From positions 436,572 to 500,571 of the forward strand of contig JBBIOT010000001.1 of assembly GCA_037443245.1 (NCBI GenBank): a DNA stretch of 64,000 nt, given 5' to 3'. The notes beneath the pieces are model-generated. The model did not search any database. It was not told the DNA's origin and saw nothing but the letters and a program-made list of their open reading frames with translations. This document shows positions 23,363 through 32,015 of this stretch, one piece after another (the first letter of the stretch is position 1; every line of letters starts with the position of its first letter). The position numbers were made by a program, and so were the translations under genes. This DNA comes from Caldimicrobium sp. (lineage in GTDB: Bacteria; Desulfobacterota; Thermodesulfobacteria; Thermodesulfobacteriales; Thermodesulfobacteriaceae).

Positions 23363-24565
23363 TTACCCTCCCACCACACTACCAAGCTGGAAGATTGGGA
23401 GATAGAGGGCTACTAAGATTCCACCAATGATCACACCTAAGAAGATTAAAAGAATGGGTTCAATCAAAGTAGAAATAGTTTGCACCGTTCTATCTACTTC
23501 TTCTTCATAAAAATCCGCTACTTTAAAGAGCATTTCATCAACCCTTCCTGACATTTCCCCAACCCTTACCATTTCCACTACCATATAAGGAAAAACTCCA
23601 GTAAAAAACATAGGGTCTGACATAGGTTGACCAGCTATGACGCTTAAGCGAACATCTTCCAAGGCCTTTTCTATCACCTTATTACCCGAAGTTTCAGCCG
23701 CTATCAAAATGGCCTGAAGTAAAGGAACTCCAGCATTGATCAATGTACCTAAAGTCCGAGCCATCCTTGAAATAGCGGTCTTCAGAAAAAGTTCCCCGAA
23801 GAGGGGAATTTTTAATAAAAGGCGGTCTGTCTCCAGGATACCCTTTTCAGTTTTACGAATGGATTTTATGGAAAAAATTAAAACCAAAAGGATCCCCAAT
23901 AAGCCTAAAAAAACATATTTAAAATTATGACTTAGGCTGAGTAAAATTTGGGTGGGTAAAGGAAGAGCTTGTCCAGCTTCCGCAAAAAGTTGAGCAAATT
24001 TGGGGATGACAAAGATCATCAATATACTTATTACTAGGATAGTTACAAAAATGATCAGGGAAGGATAGATCATGGCGTGTTTAACTTTAGCCTTTAGGGC
24101 TACAATCTTTTCCAAATAAAGGGCTAACCGCTGTAAAACACTATCAAGATTGCCCGAGGCTTCGGCAGACCTTACCAGATAAATATAAAGCCGGTTGAAG
24201 ACCTTAGGATACTCGGCTAAGGCATCACTCAGGGAACTCCCCGCCTCTATTTTTAATTTGATTTCCTCCAGGACTTGCCGAAAATAAGGATTTTTAGTCT
24301 GTATGGTTAAAACTTCTAAACTTTTGACAATGGGCAAGCCAGCGGCAAGCACGGTGGCAAATTGCCGTGTAAAGAGCATAAGCTCTTTATCAGAAATTCT
24401 CTTTAAAGTAATTAAAGGAGGTCTTTCTTTTTGAAGTTTTATTTCAAGAGGTTGGATGTTGAGTCTACGAAGGTGAAACTCAACTATTTGGGGACTTGGG
24501 GCCTCCAAAACTCCACTTCTAAGCTCACCGGAAGAAGATTTACCTTTCCATTTATAAAAGGGCAT
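23363..24565 (-). CDS. pilC: type IV pilus assembly / type II secretion platform protein (PilC/GspF family)
   Basis: 400 aa with a duplicated GspF-type domain and three TM segments. Typical N-terminus YKWKGKSSSGE. Confidence 0.85.
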   Translation of the reverse strand: MPFYKWKGKSSSGELRSGVLEAPSPQIVEFHLRRLNIQPLEIKLQKERPPLITLKRISDKELMLFTRQFATVLAAGLPIVKSLEVLTIQTKNPYFRQVLEEIKLKIEAGSSLSDALAEYPKVFNRLYIYLVRSAEASGNLDSVLQRLALYLEKIVALKAKVKHAMIYPSLIIFVTILVISILMIFVIPKFAQLFAEAGQALPLPTQILLSLSHNFKYVFLGLLGILLVLIFSIKSIRKTEKGILETDRLLLKIPLFGELFLKTAISRMARTLGTLINAGVPLLQAILIAAETSGNKVIEKALEDVRLSVIAGQPMSDPMFFTGVFPYMVVEMVRVGEMSGRVDEMLFKVADFYEEEVDRTVQTISTLIEPILLIFLGVIIGGILVALYLPIFQLGSVVGG

Positions 24566-24569
24566 TACA

Positions 24570-26039
24570 TTATTTGCCTATCCAATAATTTGGAGCTTCG
24601 CGAAGGATGGTTACGTCATGCACATGGCTTTCCCGATATCCAGCGGGAGTTATCCGGATAAATTTAGCCTTTTTACGAAGTTCTTGAATGTTGGCACATC
24701 CACAATAGCCCATTCCAGATTTAAGACCGCCGATAAGCTGATAAATAATTTGGGCTACTGGTCCTCGGTATGGGACCCTTCCCTCTACCCCTTCGGGTAC
24801 AAATTTTGATATATCTTCAGCCTCTTGACCATAACGTTCCCTTGCCCCACTTTTAAACATAGCCGATAAAGAGCCCATTCCCCGATAAAGTTTATAGGTT
24901 CTACCTTCGTAAAGTATTACCTCTCCTGGGGCTTCTTCGGTACCAGCAAAAAGGTTACCAATCATTACAGCCCATGCTCCCGCAGCAATAGCCTTAGTTA
25001 TATCACCCGAAAATCTTATCCCTCCGTCAGCGATAATTGGGATACCATACTTATCAGCTACCTTAGCGGCATTATGGATGGCTGTGAGTTGGGGAACCCC
25101 TGCTCCTGCAACAATCCGGGTGGTACAAATAGATCCTGGACCAACTCCAACTTTTACCCCATCTGCTCCAGCCTTAAGTAGGGCCTCACAACCTTCAGAT
25201 GTGGCGATGTTGCCTGCTATTATTTGGCAATCCGGGAAATGATACTTTATTTCCCTAATGGTTTCAATAACGTTTTTACTATGTCCATGAGCAGAATCAA
25301 TAAAAAGTACGTCCGCTCCAGCCTTAAGTAAGGCCTCCGCCTGTTCAAGCCGGTTCTTACCAACTCCAATGGCTGCTCCAACCCTTAACCTTCCCAATTC
25401 ATCCTTACAAGCATTGGGATATTTTTTAATCTTTTCTATATCTTTAATGGTAATCAGTCCTTTTAAACAAAAATTCTCATCCACTATTAGAAGTTTTTCA
25501 ATCCTTCTTTCATGGAGAATTTTAATCGCTTCATCAAGAGTAATTCCTGGTTTAGCAGTTACTAAATTCTCTTTGGTCATTACCTCTTTGACTGGGCGAT
25601 CAAGCTGAGTTTCAAACCGAAGGTCGCGGTTAGTAACAATACCTACAAGTTTTTTCTCCGGACCTTCCACTACCGGAATACCGGAAATTTTATACTCATC
25701 CATGAGATTTAAGACTTTACGAATTGGTGTTTCCGGATCAACCGTTACAGGGTCATAAATCATCCCACTTTCCGATTTTTTGACCTTTTCTACTTCACGA
25801 ACCTGTTCTTCAAGGGATATATTCCGATGGATTACGCCAAGACCACCCTCCCGGGCTAAAGCAATAGCCATCCGGCTTTCCGTAACCGTATCCATAGCCG
25901 CTGAAATTAACGGTATGTTAAGCTTAATCTTCGGGGTGATGTAGGTGGAAACATCTACATCCTTCGGCAAAATCTCAGAATAGGAGGGAGCAAGCAAAAC
26001 GTCATCAAAGGTCAAACCTTCTTGAATAATCTCTAACAT
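24570..26039 (-). CDS. guaB: IMP dehydrogenase
   Basis: LTFDDVLL N-terminus, CBS pair, catalytic GPGSICTTR loop, GGIRFSGD. I prefer the ATG at 26039 ([15 protein letters not shown]) over the track start at 26084, which overlaps the upstream gene. Confidence 0.92.
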
Positions 26040-26071: not shown

Positions 26072-27262
26072 TTACAATCCCCAAAAGGAAAGTAAAGTGG
26101 CCTCAAGGATGCCAAATTCACTGATAATAACTTCAGATAAGGAAAAATAATTTAAAAGTTCAAGATATATGGCTAAAGCTGGAATTAAAAGGTCTTCCCG
26201 TCCTCTCTCCATGCCTTTTAGTTTAGCTAGTTGAGAATAGGTCAAACCTATCACTCTTTCGGAGAGCTTTATTAACCTATCCCAGGTTAAACGATGCCCA
26301 TGAAGAAGATCAAAATCAAAGTCCTTGAGCTTCAAATCTATGGCCCCTAAAAGGGAGGCTGAGCCACCAGTGACAATCATAAAGGGACTTGCCCTAAAAG
26401 ATAGCTCCTTAGTTCTTTCCCTCACATATTCTCTTAAGGACTGAAAGACCCGTGAAGTAATGGGATATTTTAGCTTAAATAAATCCCGCAGGAAAACTAC
26501 TCCCAAATCTAAGCTGAAAATTTCTGGAGTCCCATCTTTTTTATAATTTATGATCTCCGTTGATCCTCCACCTACATCCACCACCAAAAAATGATCCAAG
26601 TTCAAACCTAAGATCTTCAAACCAAACTCAACACCTTTGAGGGTAAGCTTAGCCTCTTCCTCAGGACTTAGTATCCGGATGGAAATCCCTAATTTTTCTT
26701 CTACTTCCCTTAGAAAGCTTTCTCCATTCTTGGCCTGTCTAAAAACAGCTGTTCCTACTGCGTTAATCCTTTTAACCTCATATTTGTTCAGGAAGGATTT
26801 GAATTTTCCCAGGGCTGTTAAGCCTCTTTTAATAGCTTCCTCTCCCAAAAAACCTCTATCCTTAAGATTTTCACCAAGCCTCACGTTCTCTCGGCCGCGC
26901 CAAAGAAACAACGGTTGACCGTTAAAAAATTTTCCTAAAATAAGCCTAAAGGTTTGCGTCCCAAGATCAAGCCCAGCCTCAAAGGGAGTATTTAACCTCT
27001 CTAAAAGCTCTTTACTATTCTTAAATAGGACCCTCCTTTTCTCCTTGATAAAGTATTTCTGTTGATTCTTGGGATTAAAAAACCAAGCCCCCTTTCCTAC
27101 TCTAGGCTCCAAAATCCCAAAACCGCGGAGCTCTATGGCCTGGCCATTTTGAAGAGCCTCAATTAAGACCTCAAAAAAAGCTTCAATCAACTCTAAGATA
27201 ATATCATCATCTACATCAGGAAAGGATTTTTTTAAGATCTTAGCTAAATCTTTTTTCGTCAT
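26072..27262 (-). CDS. HU/IHF-like DNA-binding domain fused to Ppx/GppA-family phosphatase
   Basis: 396 aa. Residues 1-90 look like HU/IHF ([10 protein letters not shown]...FNPKN...[11 protein letters not shown]). The remainder has ASKHA/Ppx motifs [19 protein letters not shown] and VDVGGGSTE. Confidence 0.75.
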
Positions 27263-27267
27263 CTCAG

Positions 27268-28143
27268 CTATTTCATGAGAAAAAAGGGTTGGTACGACAA
27301 GCTTTCTAACAGTTTTTCCAACCTAAGAGAACTTTTTTCTTCTAACAGCCTTTCCCAAAAACTTTTCTTTCGGGGTAAAGAAATCACTCCTATCTCTTTT
27401 AATCCTAACCTTTTCTTTAATTCCTCAAGAGCGGTATGGTAATTCCCTAACTCATCAATTAGTCCTAACTTTTTAGCTTCCTCTCCGGTATAGATTCTAC
27501 CATCCGCCAAGACCTCTACTTTTTCTATGGGAAGGGACCGTTCCATAGCCACAACCTTGATAAACTGTTGATGAAGCTGCTTAACCTTGTCTTCCAAATA
27601 TTGTCGTTCTTTAGGGGTTAAACTCCTAAAGATCGTACCCGTATCCTTGTATTCCCCACTTTTGATTACTTCTCCCTTGATCCCCAGTTTATCTAAAAGC
27701 TTTTCCAGATTTGGGATTTCAATTAATACTCCTATACTACCCGTGATGGTGCCAGGATTGGCAAAAATCTTTTCACCTGCCAAGGCTAAATAATATCCTC
27801 CCGATGCAGAAATACCACCCATAGAGACATAAACAGGCTTTAACTTTCTTAACTTTTTTAATTCTTCATATACCTCCTGGGTTGGACCAATAGCCCCGCC
27901 AGGGGAATCAATACGCACTAAAACTCCCTTTATATCACTACGACTCATAAATTCTTTCACAGCCGAAAGATATTCCTCCGCCTCCACAATCAATCCCTTA
28001 ACCTCTAAGATCCCTATCTTTGGCTTGCCGTAATCAAAAGATTTTATCAGGGGAAGTAAAGCTAAAAGAAGGAATAGAACAAGAATAAAGAAAACTATCC
28101 CACCTAAAAAGGTTAAAAACCTTGTAAACCATCCCCTTTTCAT
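27268..28143 (-). CDS. sppA: signal peptide peptidase SppA (36K type)
   Basis: 291 aa. N-terminal TM, ClpP/crotonase fold, SPGG and catalytic-Ser region ASGGYY. Confidence 0.85.
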   Translation of the reverse strand: MKRGWFTRFLTFLGGIVFFILVLFLLLALLPLIKSFDYGKPKIGILEVKGLIVEAEEYLSAVKEFMSRSDIKGVLVRIDSPGGAIGPTQEVYEELKKLRKLKPVYVSMGGISASGGYYLALAGEKIFANPGTITGSIGVLIEIPNLEKLLDKLGIKGEVIKSGEYKDTGTIFRSLTPKERQYLEDKVKQLHQQFIKVVAMERSLPIEKVEVLADGRIYTGEEAKKLGLIDELGNYHTALEELKKRLGLKEIGVISLPRKKSFWERLLEEKSSLRLEKLLESLSYQPFFLMK

Positions 28144-29780
28144 AGATCCTTTTCCGAAAGGACCTTTTTTAATCTTTCCGCAAGGATCAATCTTTTGGAG
28201 GGCCTCTGGGATTTTAAAAAGCTCTCCACCTCTTTCCTTTCTTCCTCTTCTTTAAGAGCTTTAACGGAAACCTTAATTCTTCTTTTTTCAGGCTCCAAGG
28301 AAATAATCTTTACCTCTAAGGCCTCCCCTTCCTTATATTTTTCCCCCTCCCTAACTTCTTCTAAAGGTAAAAAGGCCTGAATTTCTGAAGATAAAGAAAG
28401 TATATAGCCTCTACCTGGCAATATTTTTTTCACCACTCCTGAAACCCTTTCGCCAACTGGCCATTTTTCCTTCGCTAACTCCCAAGGATCGGGTTGAAGG
28501 GCCTTGAGGCTGAGTTTCAATTTACGAGCTAAAGGATCAAGTTCTAAAATCTTGGCCCTAACTTCCATCCCGAGGGAGAATTTTTCTTCCAAGTTGCTTT
28601 CCCTTTGCCAGCTTGTTTCGGCTTTAGGAACAAACCCCCTTACCCCAGGAAGGACTTCAATAAAGAGACCAAAATCTGTTATTCCCTCTATCCTACCCAC
28701 TACTTCATCGCCAACCCCATGCTTTTGAGAAAATCCTTCCCAAGGATCCTCTTCAAGCCTCTTAAGGCTAAGGATCATTCGCCTTTTGTCTTCATCTATT
28801 TCCGTAAGCAAAACCTCAACCCGATCACCCTCCTTAAGAACCTCCCAGGGTTTTAGACCTTTCCGCCAGGTCAACTCACTGGCAGGAATTAGCCCTTCTA
28901 CCCCAGGTTCTATTTCCACCAAGGCTCCAAAGGGCTTAACCTCAACTACCGTCCCTATTACTCGAGTATCCACATGATATCTTTTAGAAATTCCTTCCCA
29001 AGGGTCTTTTGCTAGAGCTTTAAGGCTTAATCTAAATCTTTGCTTTGAAAGGTCATGCTCTAAAACTAAAACTTTTACTTCATCACCTATTTTTAAATAC
29101 TCTTCCGGATTGGACAATCGGCGGTAGGTCAATTCTGAAAAGGGTAAATATCCAATTACTAAGCCCTCCAATTCCACTAAGAAACCTCCAGGTACGTGCG
29201 ATTTCACTTTGCCCAAAAGGGGTTGTTTTTGGTTAATTCTAGCTAAAAGTGCCCTCATCCGTTCTTCTTTTTCCTTTTCTAAATAAGCTTTTTGAGAAAC
29301 TACAAAGGTCTCGCCTTCTACCTTTTGGGCTAATACTGTGATAGCCTGTCCGATGAGATCTTGCCTTTTATCTGCCTGTGATCCAGGTAAAAAGCCCTCT
29401 AACAGGTCTTTATAATTTACTCGGTATCCTCCCTTTATTTGAGAAACTACCTTAACTTGAAAGGGACTTTTTTGAGCTAAAAACTCCGAAAGTTCCTCCT
29501 TAGCTTTCCTTTTCCAAAGCTTGAGGACGGAAAGCAAATAATTTCCCTGCGGAGTTTGGCCTATAACTTGGGCTTCCACTTCAGAGCCAGGTTGTAAGGT
29601 CAAAGAAAAGGAAGGCAATTCTGACTTGGGAAGGATGGCTTCAGCTTTTCCTCCTATATCAACATAAACATTTTCTTGATCCTCATGCACAACTATGCCC
29701 TTTACCAGCTCACCAGCCCGAAAAGAGCCTTGACCTTGCAAAAAATAGCTTTCTAAAAGTTCGGAAAAATTTTCTCTCAT
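28140..29780 (-). CDS. rpsA: 30S ribosomal protein S1
   Basis: 546 aa with six tandem S1 OB-fold repeats (G..V.G.V..I..FG.FV pattern). Confidence 0.9.
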   Translation of the reverse strand: MRENFSELLESYFLQGQGSFRAGELVKGIVVHEDQENVYVDIGGKAEAILPKSELPSFSLTLQPGSEVEAQVIGQTPQGNYLLSVLKLWKRKAKEELSEFLAQKSPFQVKVVSQIKGGYRVNYKDLLEGFLPGSQADKRQDLIGQAITVLAQKVEGETFVVSQKAYLEKEKEERMRALLARINQKQPLLGKVKSHVPGGFLVELEGLVIGYLPFSELTYRRLSNPEEYLKIGDEVKVLVLEHDLSKQRFRLSLKALAKDPWEGISKRYHVDTRVIGTVVEVKPFGALVEIEPGVEGLIPASELTWRKGLKPWEVLKEGDRVEVLLTEIDEDKRRMILSLKRLEEDPWEGFSQKHGVGDEVVGRIEGITDFGLFIEVLPGVRGFVPKAETSWQRESNLEEKFSLGMEVRAKILELDPLARKLKLSLKALQPDPWELAKEKWPVGERVSGVVKKILPGRGYILSLSSEIQAFLPLEEVREGEKYKEGEALEVKIISLEPEKRRIKVSVKALKEEEERKEVESFLKSQRPSKRLILAERLKKVLSEKDL

Positions 29781-29819: not shown

Positions 29820-31109
29820 TTAAAATAACAACTTTTGAGCCAGGAGAATCTCTTTTACTAACTCTATTTCCTCTTCCTTGGATTTGATAGAACCTTCCAA
29901 TCTTTTCTCCCTCAAAAACCTAAGGAGTTCTCCCAAGTTCTTCCCTTCAAGTAGGCCAAGTTGTTGCAAATCCTTCCCTGTCAATTCAGGCTTCACATAC
30001 CGATACCTTTGAAGAAAAATTTTTATCTCTTCCCAAAGATCTTCAAAATAAACAGCCACCGCAACTAAAAAGGACGGGGGAAATTTTTCTAAAAAAAAGA
30101 CCCGATCTCCTAAGGATAATTTTGGCAACTCCAGGGACTTTTCTTTAAAGATCTGCCATTTGTTTAAGAGCTTGCTAATTTGGGCATCCGTAAAAAATAA
30201 TCTCTTTAAATTTTCCCTCTTAAACCCCGAAAGAAGAAGCAAAAAGGCTTCTTCCTTTTCTTCTTCGGAGAGTTCTGCTTTTAGTTCAAGGAGAAATTTT
30301 ATACCCCTTTCAACTCTTGGCAGGTCTAATTCTAAACCCGAAAGGACAAAAAGGTTAAACCTCTTGCTAAGGTCAAGTAAACGAGGTAAAAGCATTAAAT
30401 CCTCTTTTCTTATGTACAGTTGAAGTTCATTACGAAGCCTTGAAGAAGAAAGCCTTTGGAAAGCCTTTTCTTTCTTTGCTTCTCTAAGGGCCTCTCTAAA
30501 ATCCGAACTTTCCTTGAAGTTTAAACGCGCCAGATAGCGAATCCCCCTAAAGGCCCTGGTAGGATCATCTACAAAACTTTTTTTATGAAGAGGTCTTAAC
30601 AAACCGGCCTTAAGGTCTGATAAACCACCAACCAAGTCCACCACCCTCTCGGCAAAAGGGGGAGTTAAACCATAAATTAAAGCGTTAATGGTAAAATCTC
30701 GCCGCCAAATATCTTCCCTAAAAGTAGCGGGGTAAACCTTGGGTAGAGCGGCTACCTCTTCGTAAACTTCTCCTCGGGAAGAGGCTAAATCAATCGTTAG
30801 GCCAGCTGAGGGTAAAGATAGTTTATAAGTTAAAAAAGGAGTAGAAAATATCACTAAAACACCGCACCTTTTTTTTAAAGACTCCACAAACTCACTGATC
30901 TCTCCTTCAATGACCAAGTCTAGGTCTAAGGAAGGCCGATTAAGAAAAAAATCCCTTATTTGTCCTCCCGCTAAGTATAAAAATTTTTTTTGCTCTTGCG
31001 CAATCTCTTTGGCTATTTCTAAAAATTCTCTAACCCTTTGAGTAAGGCCCAAACGAGCTACAAATTCTAAAAAGGGGAGGTCTATGGTTATTATTTGGTT
31101 ATCCTGCAT
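29820..31109 (-). CDS. cca: CCA-adding enzyme / poly(A) polymerase family nucleotidyltransferase
   Basis: 429 aa. LAGGQIRDFFLNRPSLDLDLV head-domain motif and RRDFTINAL. Consistent with all three tRNA genes lacking an encoded CCA. Confidence 0.8.
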   Translation of the reverse strand: MQDNQIITIDLPFLEFVARLGLTQRVREFLEIAKEIAQEQKKFLYLAGGQIRDFFLNRPSLDLDLVIEGEISEFVESLKKRCGVLVIFSTPFLTYKLSLPSAGLTIDLASSRGEVYEEVAALPKVYPATFREDIWRRDFTINALIYGLTPPFAERVVDLVGGLSDLKAGLLRPLHKKSFVDDPTRAFRGIRYLARLNFKESSDFREALREAKKEKAFQRLSSSRLRNELQLYIRKEDLMLLPRLLDLSKRFNLFVLSGLELDLPRVERGIKFLLELKAELSEEEKEEAFLLLLSGFKRENLKRLFFTDAQISKLLNKWQIFKEKSLELPKLSLGDRVFFLEKFPPSFLVAVAVYFEDLWEEIKIFLQRYRYVKPELTGKDLQQLGLLEGKNLGELLRFLREKRLEGSIKSKEEEIELVKEILLAQKLLF

Positions 31110-31127: not shown

Positions 31128-32015
31128 TTAAGCCCGAGGATGGTGCTTGTCGTAAGTTTCTTTAAGGCTTTGCCAATCAAGATGGGTGTAAATTTGGGTA
31201 GTCCGCAAACTGCTATGGCCTAAAAGGAGTTGAATGCTACGCAGATCTGCTCCTCCTTCCAAGAGATGGGTAGCAAAGGAATGACGGATAACATGGGGGG
31301 TGACCTTTTCCTTAGGAAGATTGGCCTTTTCTGCATATTCCTTAAGGATTTGCCAAAACCTCTGTCTGGTAAGAGGACCACCTAAGCGGTTCAAAAAAAC
31401 ATATTCTTTGCTTCTTTTAGTAACCAGCCTTGGCCTGACCTCTTCTAAATATTGGGACAGGTATTTTAAAGCGGGCTCTCCTAAGGGTACGAGCCTAACT
31501 TTACTACCCTTCCCTAAAACCCTAACTAAACCAAGCTCCAAATTTAGCGCGCCTAACTTGAGATTTACCAACTCAAAAACTCTCATACCAGTAGCATAAA
31601 GAACTTCAAGCATGCACCGATCTCTAAGACCTAAAGGCGTATTTACTTCAGGGGCCTGAAGAAGCCTTTCAATTTCTTCCAGAGTGAGAACCTTGGGAAG
31701 CCTTTGGGGAAGCTTTGGCCCTTCTAAAAGAAGATAGGGCACCTCTATTTTTAATTCTTCCAAAAGATAAATAAAAAAACTTTTTAAGCTTGAAATTTTT
31801 CGAGCCTGCGTATAGGGATTGTAGCCCCGGGAAAATAAATATCCTAAATAACCCTTAATTACCTTAGGGTCTATCTCCGAAAGCTCTAACCCTAAGCCCC
31901 AAAAATATTCCAAAAAATCTTTAATATCCCGTGCATAAGCATAAAGAGTGTGCAAAGAATATTCTCTTTTCGTTGAAAGATAAGAAAGATAAGATCTAAG
32001 CAAATCCTCTTTCAT
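31128..32015 (-). CDS. tyrosine recombinase XerC/XerD family
   Basis: 295 aa. SAM-like N-domain, catalytic R...HxxR (HVIRHSFATH)...GHSSLRTTQIYTH. Confidence 0.9.
   Translation of the reverse strand: MKEDLLRSYLSYLSTKREYSLHTLYAYARDIKDFLEYFWGLGLELSEIDPKVIKGYLGYLFSRGYNPYTQARKISSLKSFFIYLLEELKIEVPYLLLEGPKLPQRLPKVLTLEEIERLLQAPEVNTPLGLRDRCMLEVLYATGMRVFELVNLKLGALNLELGLVRVLGKGSKVRLVPLGEPALKYLSQYLEEVRPRLVTKRSKEYVFLNRLGGPLTRQRFWQILKEYAEKANLPKEKVTPHVIRHSFATHLLEGGADLRSIQLLLGHSSLRTTQIYTHLDWQSLKETYDKHHPRA

Follow-up and report, generated by a model that had tools for sequence, protein, structure and literature searches.

The 64,000-nucleotide window of Caldimicrobium sp. analysed here, by which we mean the whole stretch taken from contig JBBIOT010000001.1, carries on its minus strand an open reading frame that coincides exactly with positions 26072..27262, begins with ATG, contains no internal stop and encodes a protein of 396 amino acids in which an IHF-beta-type DNA-binding domain runs directly into a Ppx/GppA phosphatase. 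There is very little doubt in our minds about this in-frame fusion, its origin and its distribution. As to function, we favour the combined reading that the product is a DNA-bound IHF subunit carrying an alarmone phosphatase, a reading to which we give a probability of roughly 60%. The two families are well known and it is their combination, fixed within one clade, that is undescribed. No description of an HU/IHF-Ppx fusion was found in the searchable full-text literature, whose coverage leaves out most subscription journals; the words Ppx, GppA, phosphatase and enzymatic are all absent from a survey of HU/IHF fusions (PMC5499826), and a targeted search of a 2025 review of polyphosphate and bacterial chromatin (PMC11894788) did not find the architecture. 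Public names for the protein are inconsistent ('HU family DNA-binding protein', 'Ppx/GppA phosphatase family protein', 'hypothetical protein'), and each of them hides half of it.

An IHF-beta-type domain and a Ppx/GppA enzyme in one reading frame

A sequence-only reading of the window had proposed that an HU/IHF-like domain is fused in one frame to Ppx/GppA, and both Pfam domains are indeed present in the single open reading frame, with the same arrangement in its relatives. The motifs quoted in support of that proposal were all found, namely RGFG at residues 46-49, NP at 63-64, DLGTQTFRL at 99-107 and DVGGGSTE at 229-236. At the level of domain architecture (Bac_DNA_binding plus Ppx-GppA) both matches lie above the Pfam cut-off, and ~88 protein clusters carry the two domains together. 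Further, an AlphaFold2 model computed with 82 family members as input is confident over the whole chain (predicted local distance difference test (pLDDT) 92.6, predicted template modelling score (pTM) 0.85) and shows an HU topology followed directly by the first strand of the Ppx domain.

The N-terminal domain matches Pfam PF00216 (Bac_DNA_binding) over residues 1-91, covering all 90 positions of the profile (E 8.1e-17; 61.7 bits, cut-off 22.4). When a profile of the HU part made from 22 family members was compared with the PDB, IHF-beta chains came first (E 1e-20 to 2e-19), with HU (7e-18) and IHF-alpha (2e-16) behind them, and the same profile matched a bona fide IHF-beta of an outgroup with an hhalign probability of 99.6%. 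The best NCBIfam model for this part was likewise that of IHF-beta (NF001222), ahead of IHF-alpha. The HU fold that had been proposed for the first ~90 residues is therefore upheld by Pfam, by the IHF-beta profile and by hhalign. In the model, the secondary structure assigned by DSSP (H3-13, H19-38, E43-45, E49-56, E59-63, E68-72, E75-82 and H84-91, with pLDDT of 86-94) amounts to two helices, a three-stranded sheet with its arm and a C-terminal helix. Across 82 clusters R46, F48, G49, F61, N63, P64 and F80 are invariant, K/R57, K/R65, R77 and K84 are nearly so, and the sheet-and-arm segment comprising residues 46-84 has a net charge of +9. In IHF and HU it is the arm-tip proline that enters the minor groove of DNA. 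Membership of the HU-HIG or CCDC81 clades of HU was considered and rejected, the Pfam models of both matching at E ~0.1 only.

The remainder of the protein matches Pfam PF02541 (Ppx-GppA) over residues 119-392 (E 5.4e-50, 170.9 bits, cut-off 27). TIGR03706 exo_poly_only (204.8 bits, cut-off 307), NF008108 (108 vs 864) and the GppA equivalog NF008260 (92.4 bits vs a cut-off of 624) all score under their cut-offs; the match to the NCBIfam Ppx model spans only the first ~300 of its 513 positions, and the four-domain architecture is absent, domains I and II alone being present. In this respect the earlier statement that Ppx/GppA enzymes normally stand alone needs qualification, since it fits the short two-domain forms but not the PPX/GppA proteins of E. 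coli type, which carry two extra C-terminal domains. The closest solved structure by PDB sequence match is the short two-domain PPX/GPPA of Aquifex aeolicus (2j4r/1t6c, E 3e-34), whose catalytic residues E119, D141, S146 and E148 align with E203, D229, S234 and E236. A Foldseek search with the Ppx part of the model also returned Aquifex PPX/GPPA (E 3e-28, TM-score up to 0.88 when normalised on the target), and its other matches were to E. coli, Deinococcus and further PPX structures. When an Arg and a Glu reported for M. tuberculosis PPX1 (PMC3411833) are taken together with those four, the catalytic and metal-binding residues correspond to E203, D229, S234, E236 and R175 of the fusion. As a whole, the catalytic set D99, G101, R175, E203, D229, G231-G233, S234 and E236 is intact in 80 of the 82 clusters. 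The two clusters that differ at these otherwise invariant catalytic positions, P0007 (G233S, E236K) and P0008 (D99T, T102P, Q103R, R106G), may be inactive variants or sequence errors.

Between the two domains lies a linker of only four residues (92-95), which connects the end of the HU helix, where R89-L90-N91 are nearly invariant, to the first strand of the Ppx domain. Within it P93 is kept in 82% of clusters according to the column profile, and the junction is modelled with a pLDDT of at least 86 throughout. Production of a separate Ppx protein from an internal start was ruled out, as neither ATG, GTG nor TTG occurs in codons 81-112. Over all pairs of the 82 clusters, identity averages 0.498 in the HU half and 0.501 in the Ppx half (correlation 0.81) and, judged by these values, both halves are under equal purifying selection.

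Distribution of the fusion in the class Thermodesulfobacteria

In a six-frame search of 63 species genomes of the class Thermodesulfobacteria, the full-length fusion was recovered in one open frame in 59, and it is present in 38 of the 39 high-quality genomes, in 10 of 11 genera and in all three families of the class. Throughout these 59 genomes no frameshift or stop separates two genes, which answers a concern that the sequence-only reading had itself raised. In one genome of the class (G053:C136:6549-7711) the fusion gene is split into two frames by a TGA after residue ~219, representing a pseudogene or an assembly error. The ~88 clusters with both Pfam domains, compiled from NCBI, JGI, ENA and Logan, show 39-60% identity and lengths of 388-418 amino acids, and those with names come from Thermodesulfobacterium, Caldimicrobium, Thermosulfurimonas, Thermosulfuriphilus and Thermodesulfatator.

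Independent fusions elsewhere were sought and rejected. None was found outside the class in 401 genomes of the phylum, where all matches begin at about query residue 96 and reach at most 39% identity, nor among the best 150 of 18,254 matches in 1.84 billion protein representatives, of which three were full-length fusions and the rest stand-alone proteins of ~300-330 amino acids; more distant fusions of independent origin may rank lower than these 150. Two distant matches have unusual architectures: P0126 is a Ppx/GppA-type protein of 762 amino acids with two matched stretches, and P0201 (560 amino acids) has an N-terminal region ahead of a Ppx core that begins at residue 248.

Origin from adjacent ihfB and ppx genes

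Because some outgroup alignments ran upstream through stop codons, eight outgroup loci from Desulfobacterota were inspected and compared for gene order. One of them (L026) reads rpsA, sppA, an IHF-beta-like gene (95 amino acids), ppx (320 amino acids) and guaB, a second (L023) reads rpsA, sppA, ihfB (95 amino acids) and ppx (310 amino acids), and in five further loci ppx is followed by guaB. The ihfB product of L023 passes the NF001222 cut-off (120.5 vs 115 bits), and its counterpart in L026 reaches 95.9 bits. Among the relatives of the Caldimicrobium genome, the order rpsA-sppA-fusion-guaB is whole in 12 of 13 loci, the thirteenth being too short to reach rpsA. Since the outgroup order rpsA-sppA-ihfB-ppx-guaB is matched here by rpsA-sppA-ihfB::ppx-guaB, the HU half is, on the evidence of gene order, the positional orthologue of IHF-beta and not a generic HU. 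Moreover, the fused HU domains are nearest to the positional ihfB proteins of the outgroups (identity up to 49%) and more distant from the canonical HU and the IHF-alpha-like paralogue of the Caldimicrobium genome.

In a tree of Ppx domains all the fused domains fall on one side of a branch, and the nearest stand-alone protein by path is the Ppx of L026. The branch has weak support, and the case for a single origin of the fusion is made mainly by taxonomic distribution and synteny. The simplest history suggested by these comparisons is that one deletion took out the ihfB stop codon and a spacer of 0.3-0.7 kb in the ancestor of the class.

HU-family inventory and likely substrate

The genome contains three HU-family genes, coding for a canonical HU (92 amino acids), an IHF-alpha-like protein of 101 amino acids and the fusion. 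Mostly the same three are found in genera g1, g2 and g4, and five or six in the deeper genera g5-g11. Apart from the fusion, the genome has no real Ppx-GppA and no IHF-beta-like gene. The gene for the 101-residue paralogue lies outside the window (G000:C2:114935-115204; locus L002 1477..1782, minus strand), directly downstream of pheT, where ihfA is classically found, and IHF-alpha is the model that fits its product best (55.8 bits, under the cut-off). At its arm tip the sequence G-R-D-F-K-S-G stands in place of the G-R-N-P-K-T-G of IHF/HU, with no intercalating proline; the gene just past it is possibly of MerR type. Given that the alpha-like paralogue is devoid of this proline and the fused domain has it, a heterodimer of the two, if they pair, would be expected to kink DNA on one side only.

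With regard to the substrate, neither PPK1 nor a PPK2 above the cut-off was found in this genome or in any of 42 genomes of the class with a completeness of at least 90%. A PPK3-like pair, sought in the Caldimicrobium genome only, was not found there, a single tmk-family (thymidylate kinase) gene being present. The same genome encodes one long RelA/SpoT homologue in a frame of 732 amino acids. Because none of the polyphosphate kinases was found and a RelA/SpoT protein is present, guanosine pentaphosphate (pppGpp) is favoured over polyphosphate as the substrate, and the latter appears unlikely; the absence of PPK1 and PPK2 from the sampled class and of a PPK3-like pair from this genome is what disfavours it. 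The conserved adjacency of guaB, which encodes the first committed step to GTP, fits a role in guanine-nucleotide metabolism. That almost all members of a class in which neither PPK1 nor PPK2 was recognised keep an intact Ppx/GppA would point either to a dedicated GppA/nucleotidase or to an unrecognised polyphosphate synthase.

A proposed DNA-bound IHF subunit carrying a phosphatase: mechanism and alternatives

The sequence-only reading had suggested a polyP/(p)ppGpp hydrolase tethered to the nucleoid or a DNA-bending protein that responds to alarmone or polyphosphate, and the equal selection on both halves, the conserved proline, the catalytic residues and the basic arm are consistent with either. 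Dimerisation is obligatory for the HU fold, and the fusion protein would accordingly have to pair. Its likeliest partner would be the pheT-linked IHF-alpha-like protein, or else the fusion itself; self-pairing would bring two enzyme domains together, while a heterodimer with the alpha-like protein would be an asymmetric IHF bearing one enzyme. The arms of the dimer would bind and bend DNA, and the enzyme would in consequence be held on the nucleoid, with the phosphatase hanging off the C-terminal helix of the HU domain. In structures of IHF bound to DNA, the C-terminus of this helix points away from the DNA. The enzyme would then remove a terminal phosphate, namely the 5'-gamma-phosphate of pppGpp supplied by the single RelA/SpoT protein, and so yield guanosine tetraphosphate (ppGpp). 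The outcome would be either alarmone processing localised on the nucleoid or DNA bending coupled to alarmone binding.

A bolder version of this proposal, which we consider doubtful, is that the IHF heterodimer of Thermodesulfobacteria, with the only Ppx/GppA of the cell on its beta subunit, is itself an enzyme, in which conversion of pppGpp to ppGpp or alarmone sensing takes place on IHF-bent DNA and feeds back on the bending. If true, the stringent response would be linked physically and directly with nucleoid architecture. In other organisms such a link is known only in indirect form, as in the ppGpp-dependent expression of ihf in E. coli.

Several observations weigh against a DNA-bound IHF subunit with alarmone phosphatase activity. 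The HU part scores far under the IHF-beta equivalog cut-offs (48.8 vs 115 bits for NF001222 and 38.6 vs 119.95 for TIGR00988). Of the canonical trio of HU arginines its arm keeps only one, the R58 and R61 positions being variable, and it has an invariant Phe where HU has Gly60, so that DNA binding may be altered. The heterodimer with the IHF-alpha-like protein is a conjecture, and the branch uniting the fused Ppx domains is weak (Shimodaira-Hasegawa-like approximate likelihood ratio test value of 19). On the enzymatic side, two short PPX-GppA homologues from M. tuberculosis have no hydrolytic activity on pppGpp, and the authors of that work warn that homology is no predictor of activity in the Ppx/GppA family (PMC3411833). 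The H. pylori PPX/GppA prefers polyphosphate ~27-fold (PMC7552824), and the PPX of Sulfolobus seemed to lack a kinase until PPK3 was found (bioRxiv 10.1101/2024.08.28.610084).

The best surviving explanation apart from a functional tether is that the operon fusion is neutral, each half keeping its old, independent job and the tether adding no new property. Since outgroups have ihfB and ppx side by side and equally oriented, a single deletion would have been enough to fuse the two co-transcribed genes; both halves have kept their ancestral signatures, and no new interface motif was identified. We nevertheless consider neutrality unlikely, as 10 of 11 genera and three families of an old class have retained the fusion with no reversal, the junction is short, with R89-L90-N91 and P93 nearly invariant, and the invariant Phe61 arose with the fusion, being absent from the ihfB of the two unfused outgroups compared. 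The whole-chain pTM of the predicted model suggests, in addition, a defined arrangement of the domains relative to each other, and the geometry of IHF would hardly be unaffected by a domain of 300 residues that starts four residues past the last HU helix.

It is also conceivable, by analogy, that the HU domain has ceased to act on DNA and helps the enzyme by dimerising it and by forming a basic clamp around a polyanion such as polyphosphate or RNA, and so replaces domains III and IV of E. coli-type PPX/GppA, which the short Ppx forms do not have. Domain III is the probable dimerisation domain and domain IV resembles a cold-shock RNA-binding protein (PMC7552824), roles that a dimeric HU fold with a basic clamp and an arm charge of +9 could take over, and the arm does depart from the canonical R55/R58/R61 pattern. 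This explanation appears improbable in view of three points, namely that no PPK1, PPK2 or PPK3-like gene was found to make polyphosphate, that the invariant intercalating proline and RGFG are hard to explain without insertion into the minor groove, and that genera with three paralogues have no other IHF-beta, so that the IHF function would be lost.

Finally, the chance that a missed stop, a frameshift or a chimeric assembly has merged two separate genes is negligible: against the stop-split gene in just one of 63 related genomes stands the same open frame in 59 genomes and ~88 independent protein clusters, by which a missed stop codon becomes untenable, and the gene lies on a contig of 608 kb in an assembly of 1.56 Mb and 7 contigs that is 99.9% complete with 0.03% contamination.

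Comparison with known systems

With IhfB/HimD (NF001222, PF00216; 1IHF chain B, 8FLJ chain F) the N-terminal domain shares the full HU/IHF fold, aligned without gaps through the beta-arm, including RGFG, the NP tip with its intercalating proline and the C-terminal helix, as well as the position past rpsA-sppA that ihfB has in the outgroups. A further likeness to E. coli is the gene for the IHF-alpha-like partner, which is downstream of pheT in both. The differences are the 300-residue C-terminal enzyme, the partial replacement of the arm arginines, the invariant Phe61 and the fact that the Caldimicrobium genome keeps no stand-alone IHF-beta.

The enzyme half resembles the Aquifex aeolicus PPX/GPPA (1T6C, 1T6D and 2J4R, the last with ppGpp bound) in consisting of two ASKHA domains without III and IV, and both organisms are thermophiles. 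The Aquifex protein is, however, a stand-alone enzyme reported to be a monomer, identity to it is only 26-30%, and the enzyme of the fusion is preceded by a domain of the obligately dimeric, DNA-binding HU fold. The first phosphate motif differs too, with DLGTQT in the fusion vs DIGSNS/DIGSYS. E. coli PPX and GppA (1U6Z, 6PBZ), which are dimeric four-domain proteins, have the same catalytic core and residues and an extra module that provides dimerisation together with a fold of nucleic-acid-binding type, as the HU domain of the fusion would also do. In them the extra domains are C-terminal (HD-like III and cold-shock-like IV), whereas in the fusion the module is N-terminal, has another fold and derives from a nucleoid protein. 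HU folds joined to other domains in one polypeptide are also known from HU-HIG and HU-CCDC81, but those are divergent HU clades combined with winged helix-turn-helix, immunoglobulin or glycine-rich modules (Burroughs et al. 2017, PMC5499826).

Gene fusions of the 'Rosetta stone' kind are among the better genomic predictors of two proteins working together. In the present case the fusion links a core protein of nucleoid architecture with an enzyme family that processes pppGpp and polyphosphate, and a class of thermophilic sulfate reducers and sulfur disproportionators keeps it as its sole copy of either. Should the tether matter, these organisms would offer a natural and testable system for studying how the metabolism of alarmone or polyphosphate connects with DNA bending and the structure of the chromosome.

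Gene neighbourhood

The coordinates of the domains and of the surrounding genes are collected in Table 1. The probable ATG of guaB, at position 26039, lies behind a GGAGG site and 32 bp past the stop codon of the fusion. Scans for promoters and terminators around the fusion locus gave nothing above the shuffled expectation.

Table 1. Domains of the fusion protein and genes of its neighbourhood, in positions of the window
Feature	Position	Strand	Basis and remarks
HU/IHF domain, residues 1-91	26990..27262	minus	Pfam PF00216, IHF-beta profile matches
Junction T-P-F-E, residues 92-95	26978..26989	minus	Family alignments, column profile
Two-domain ASKHA Ppx/GppA, residues 96-396	26075..26977	minus	Pfam PF02541, PDB match, Foldseek
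rpsA, ribosomal protein S1	28140..29780	minus	Pfam S1 domains, E 6e-67; head of the gene string
sppA, Peptidase_S49	27268..28143	minus	Pfam PF01343, E 1.5e-53; stop 5 bp before the fusion ATG
guaB, IMP dehydrogenase with CBS domains	24570..26039	minus	Pfam IMPDH, E 4e-167
PolyA_pol/CCA-adding-type nucleotidyltransferase	29820-31109	minus	Flanks the rpsA-guaB string, tightly packed
XerC/XerD-type tyrosine recombinase	31128-32015	minus	Flanks the rpsA-guaB string, tightly packed
PilC/T2SS-F protein	23363-24565	minus	Flanks the rpsA-guaB string, tightly packed
Open reading frame of 1087 amino acids	16754-20017	minus	Downstream, same strand as the fusion

Within the string, GuaB is 85-92% identical to the orthologues of relatives, SppA 53-73% and the adjacent fusion 48-60%, and this gradient of identity (GuaB > SppA > fusion) is unusually steep for a single string of genes.

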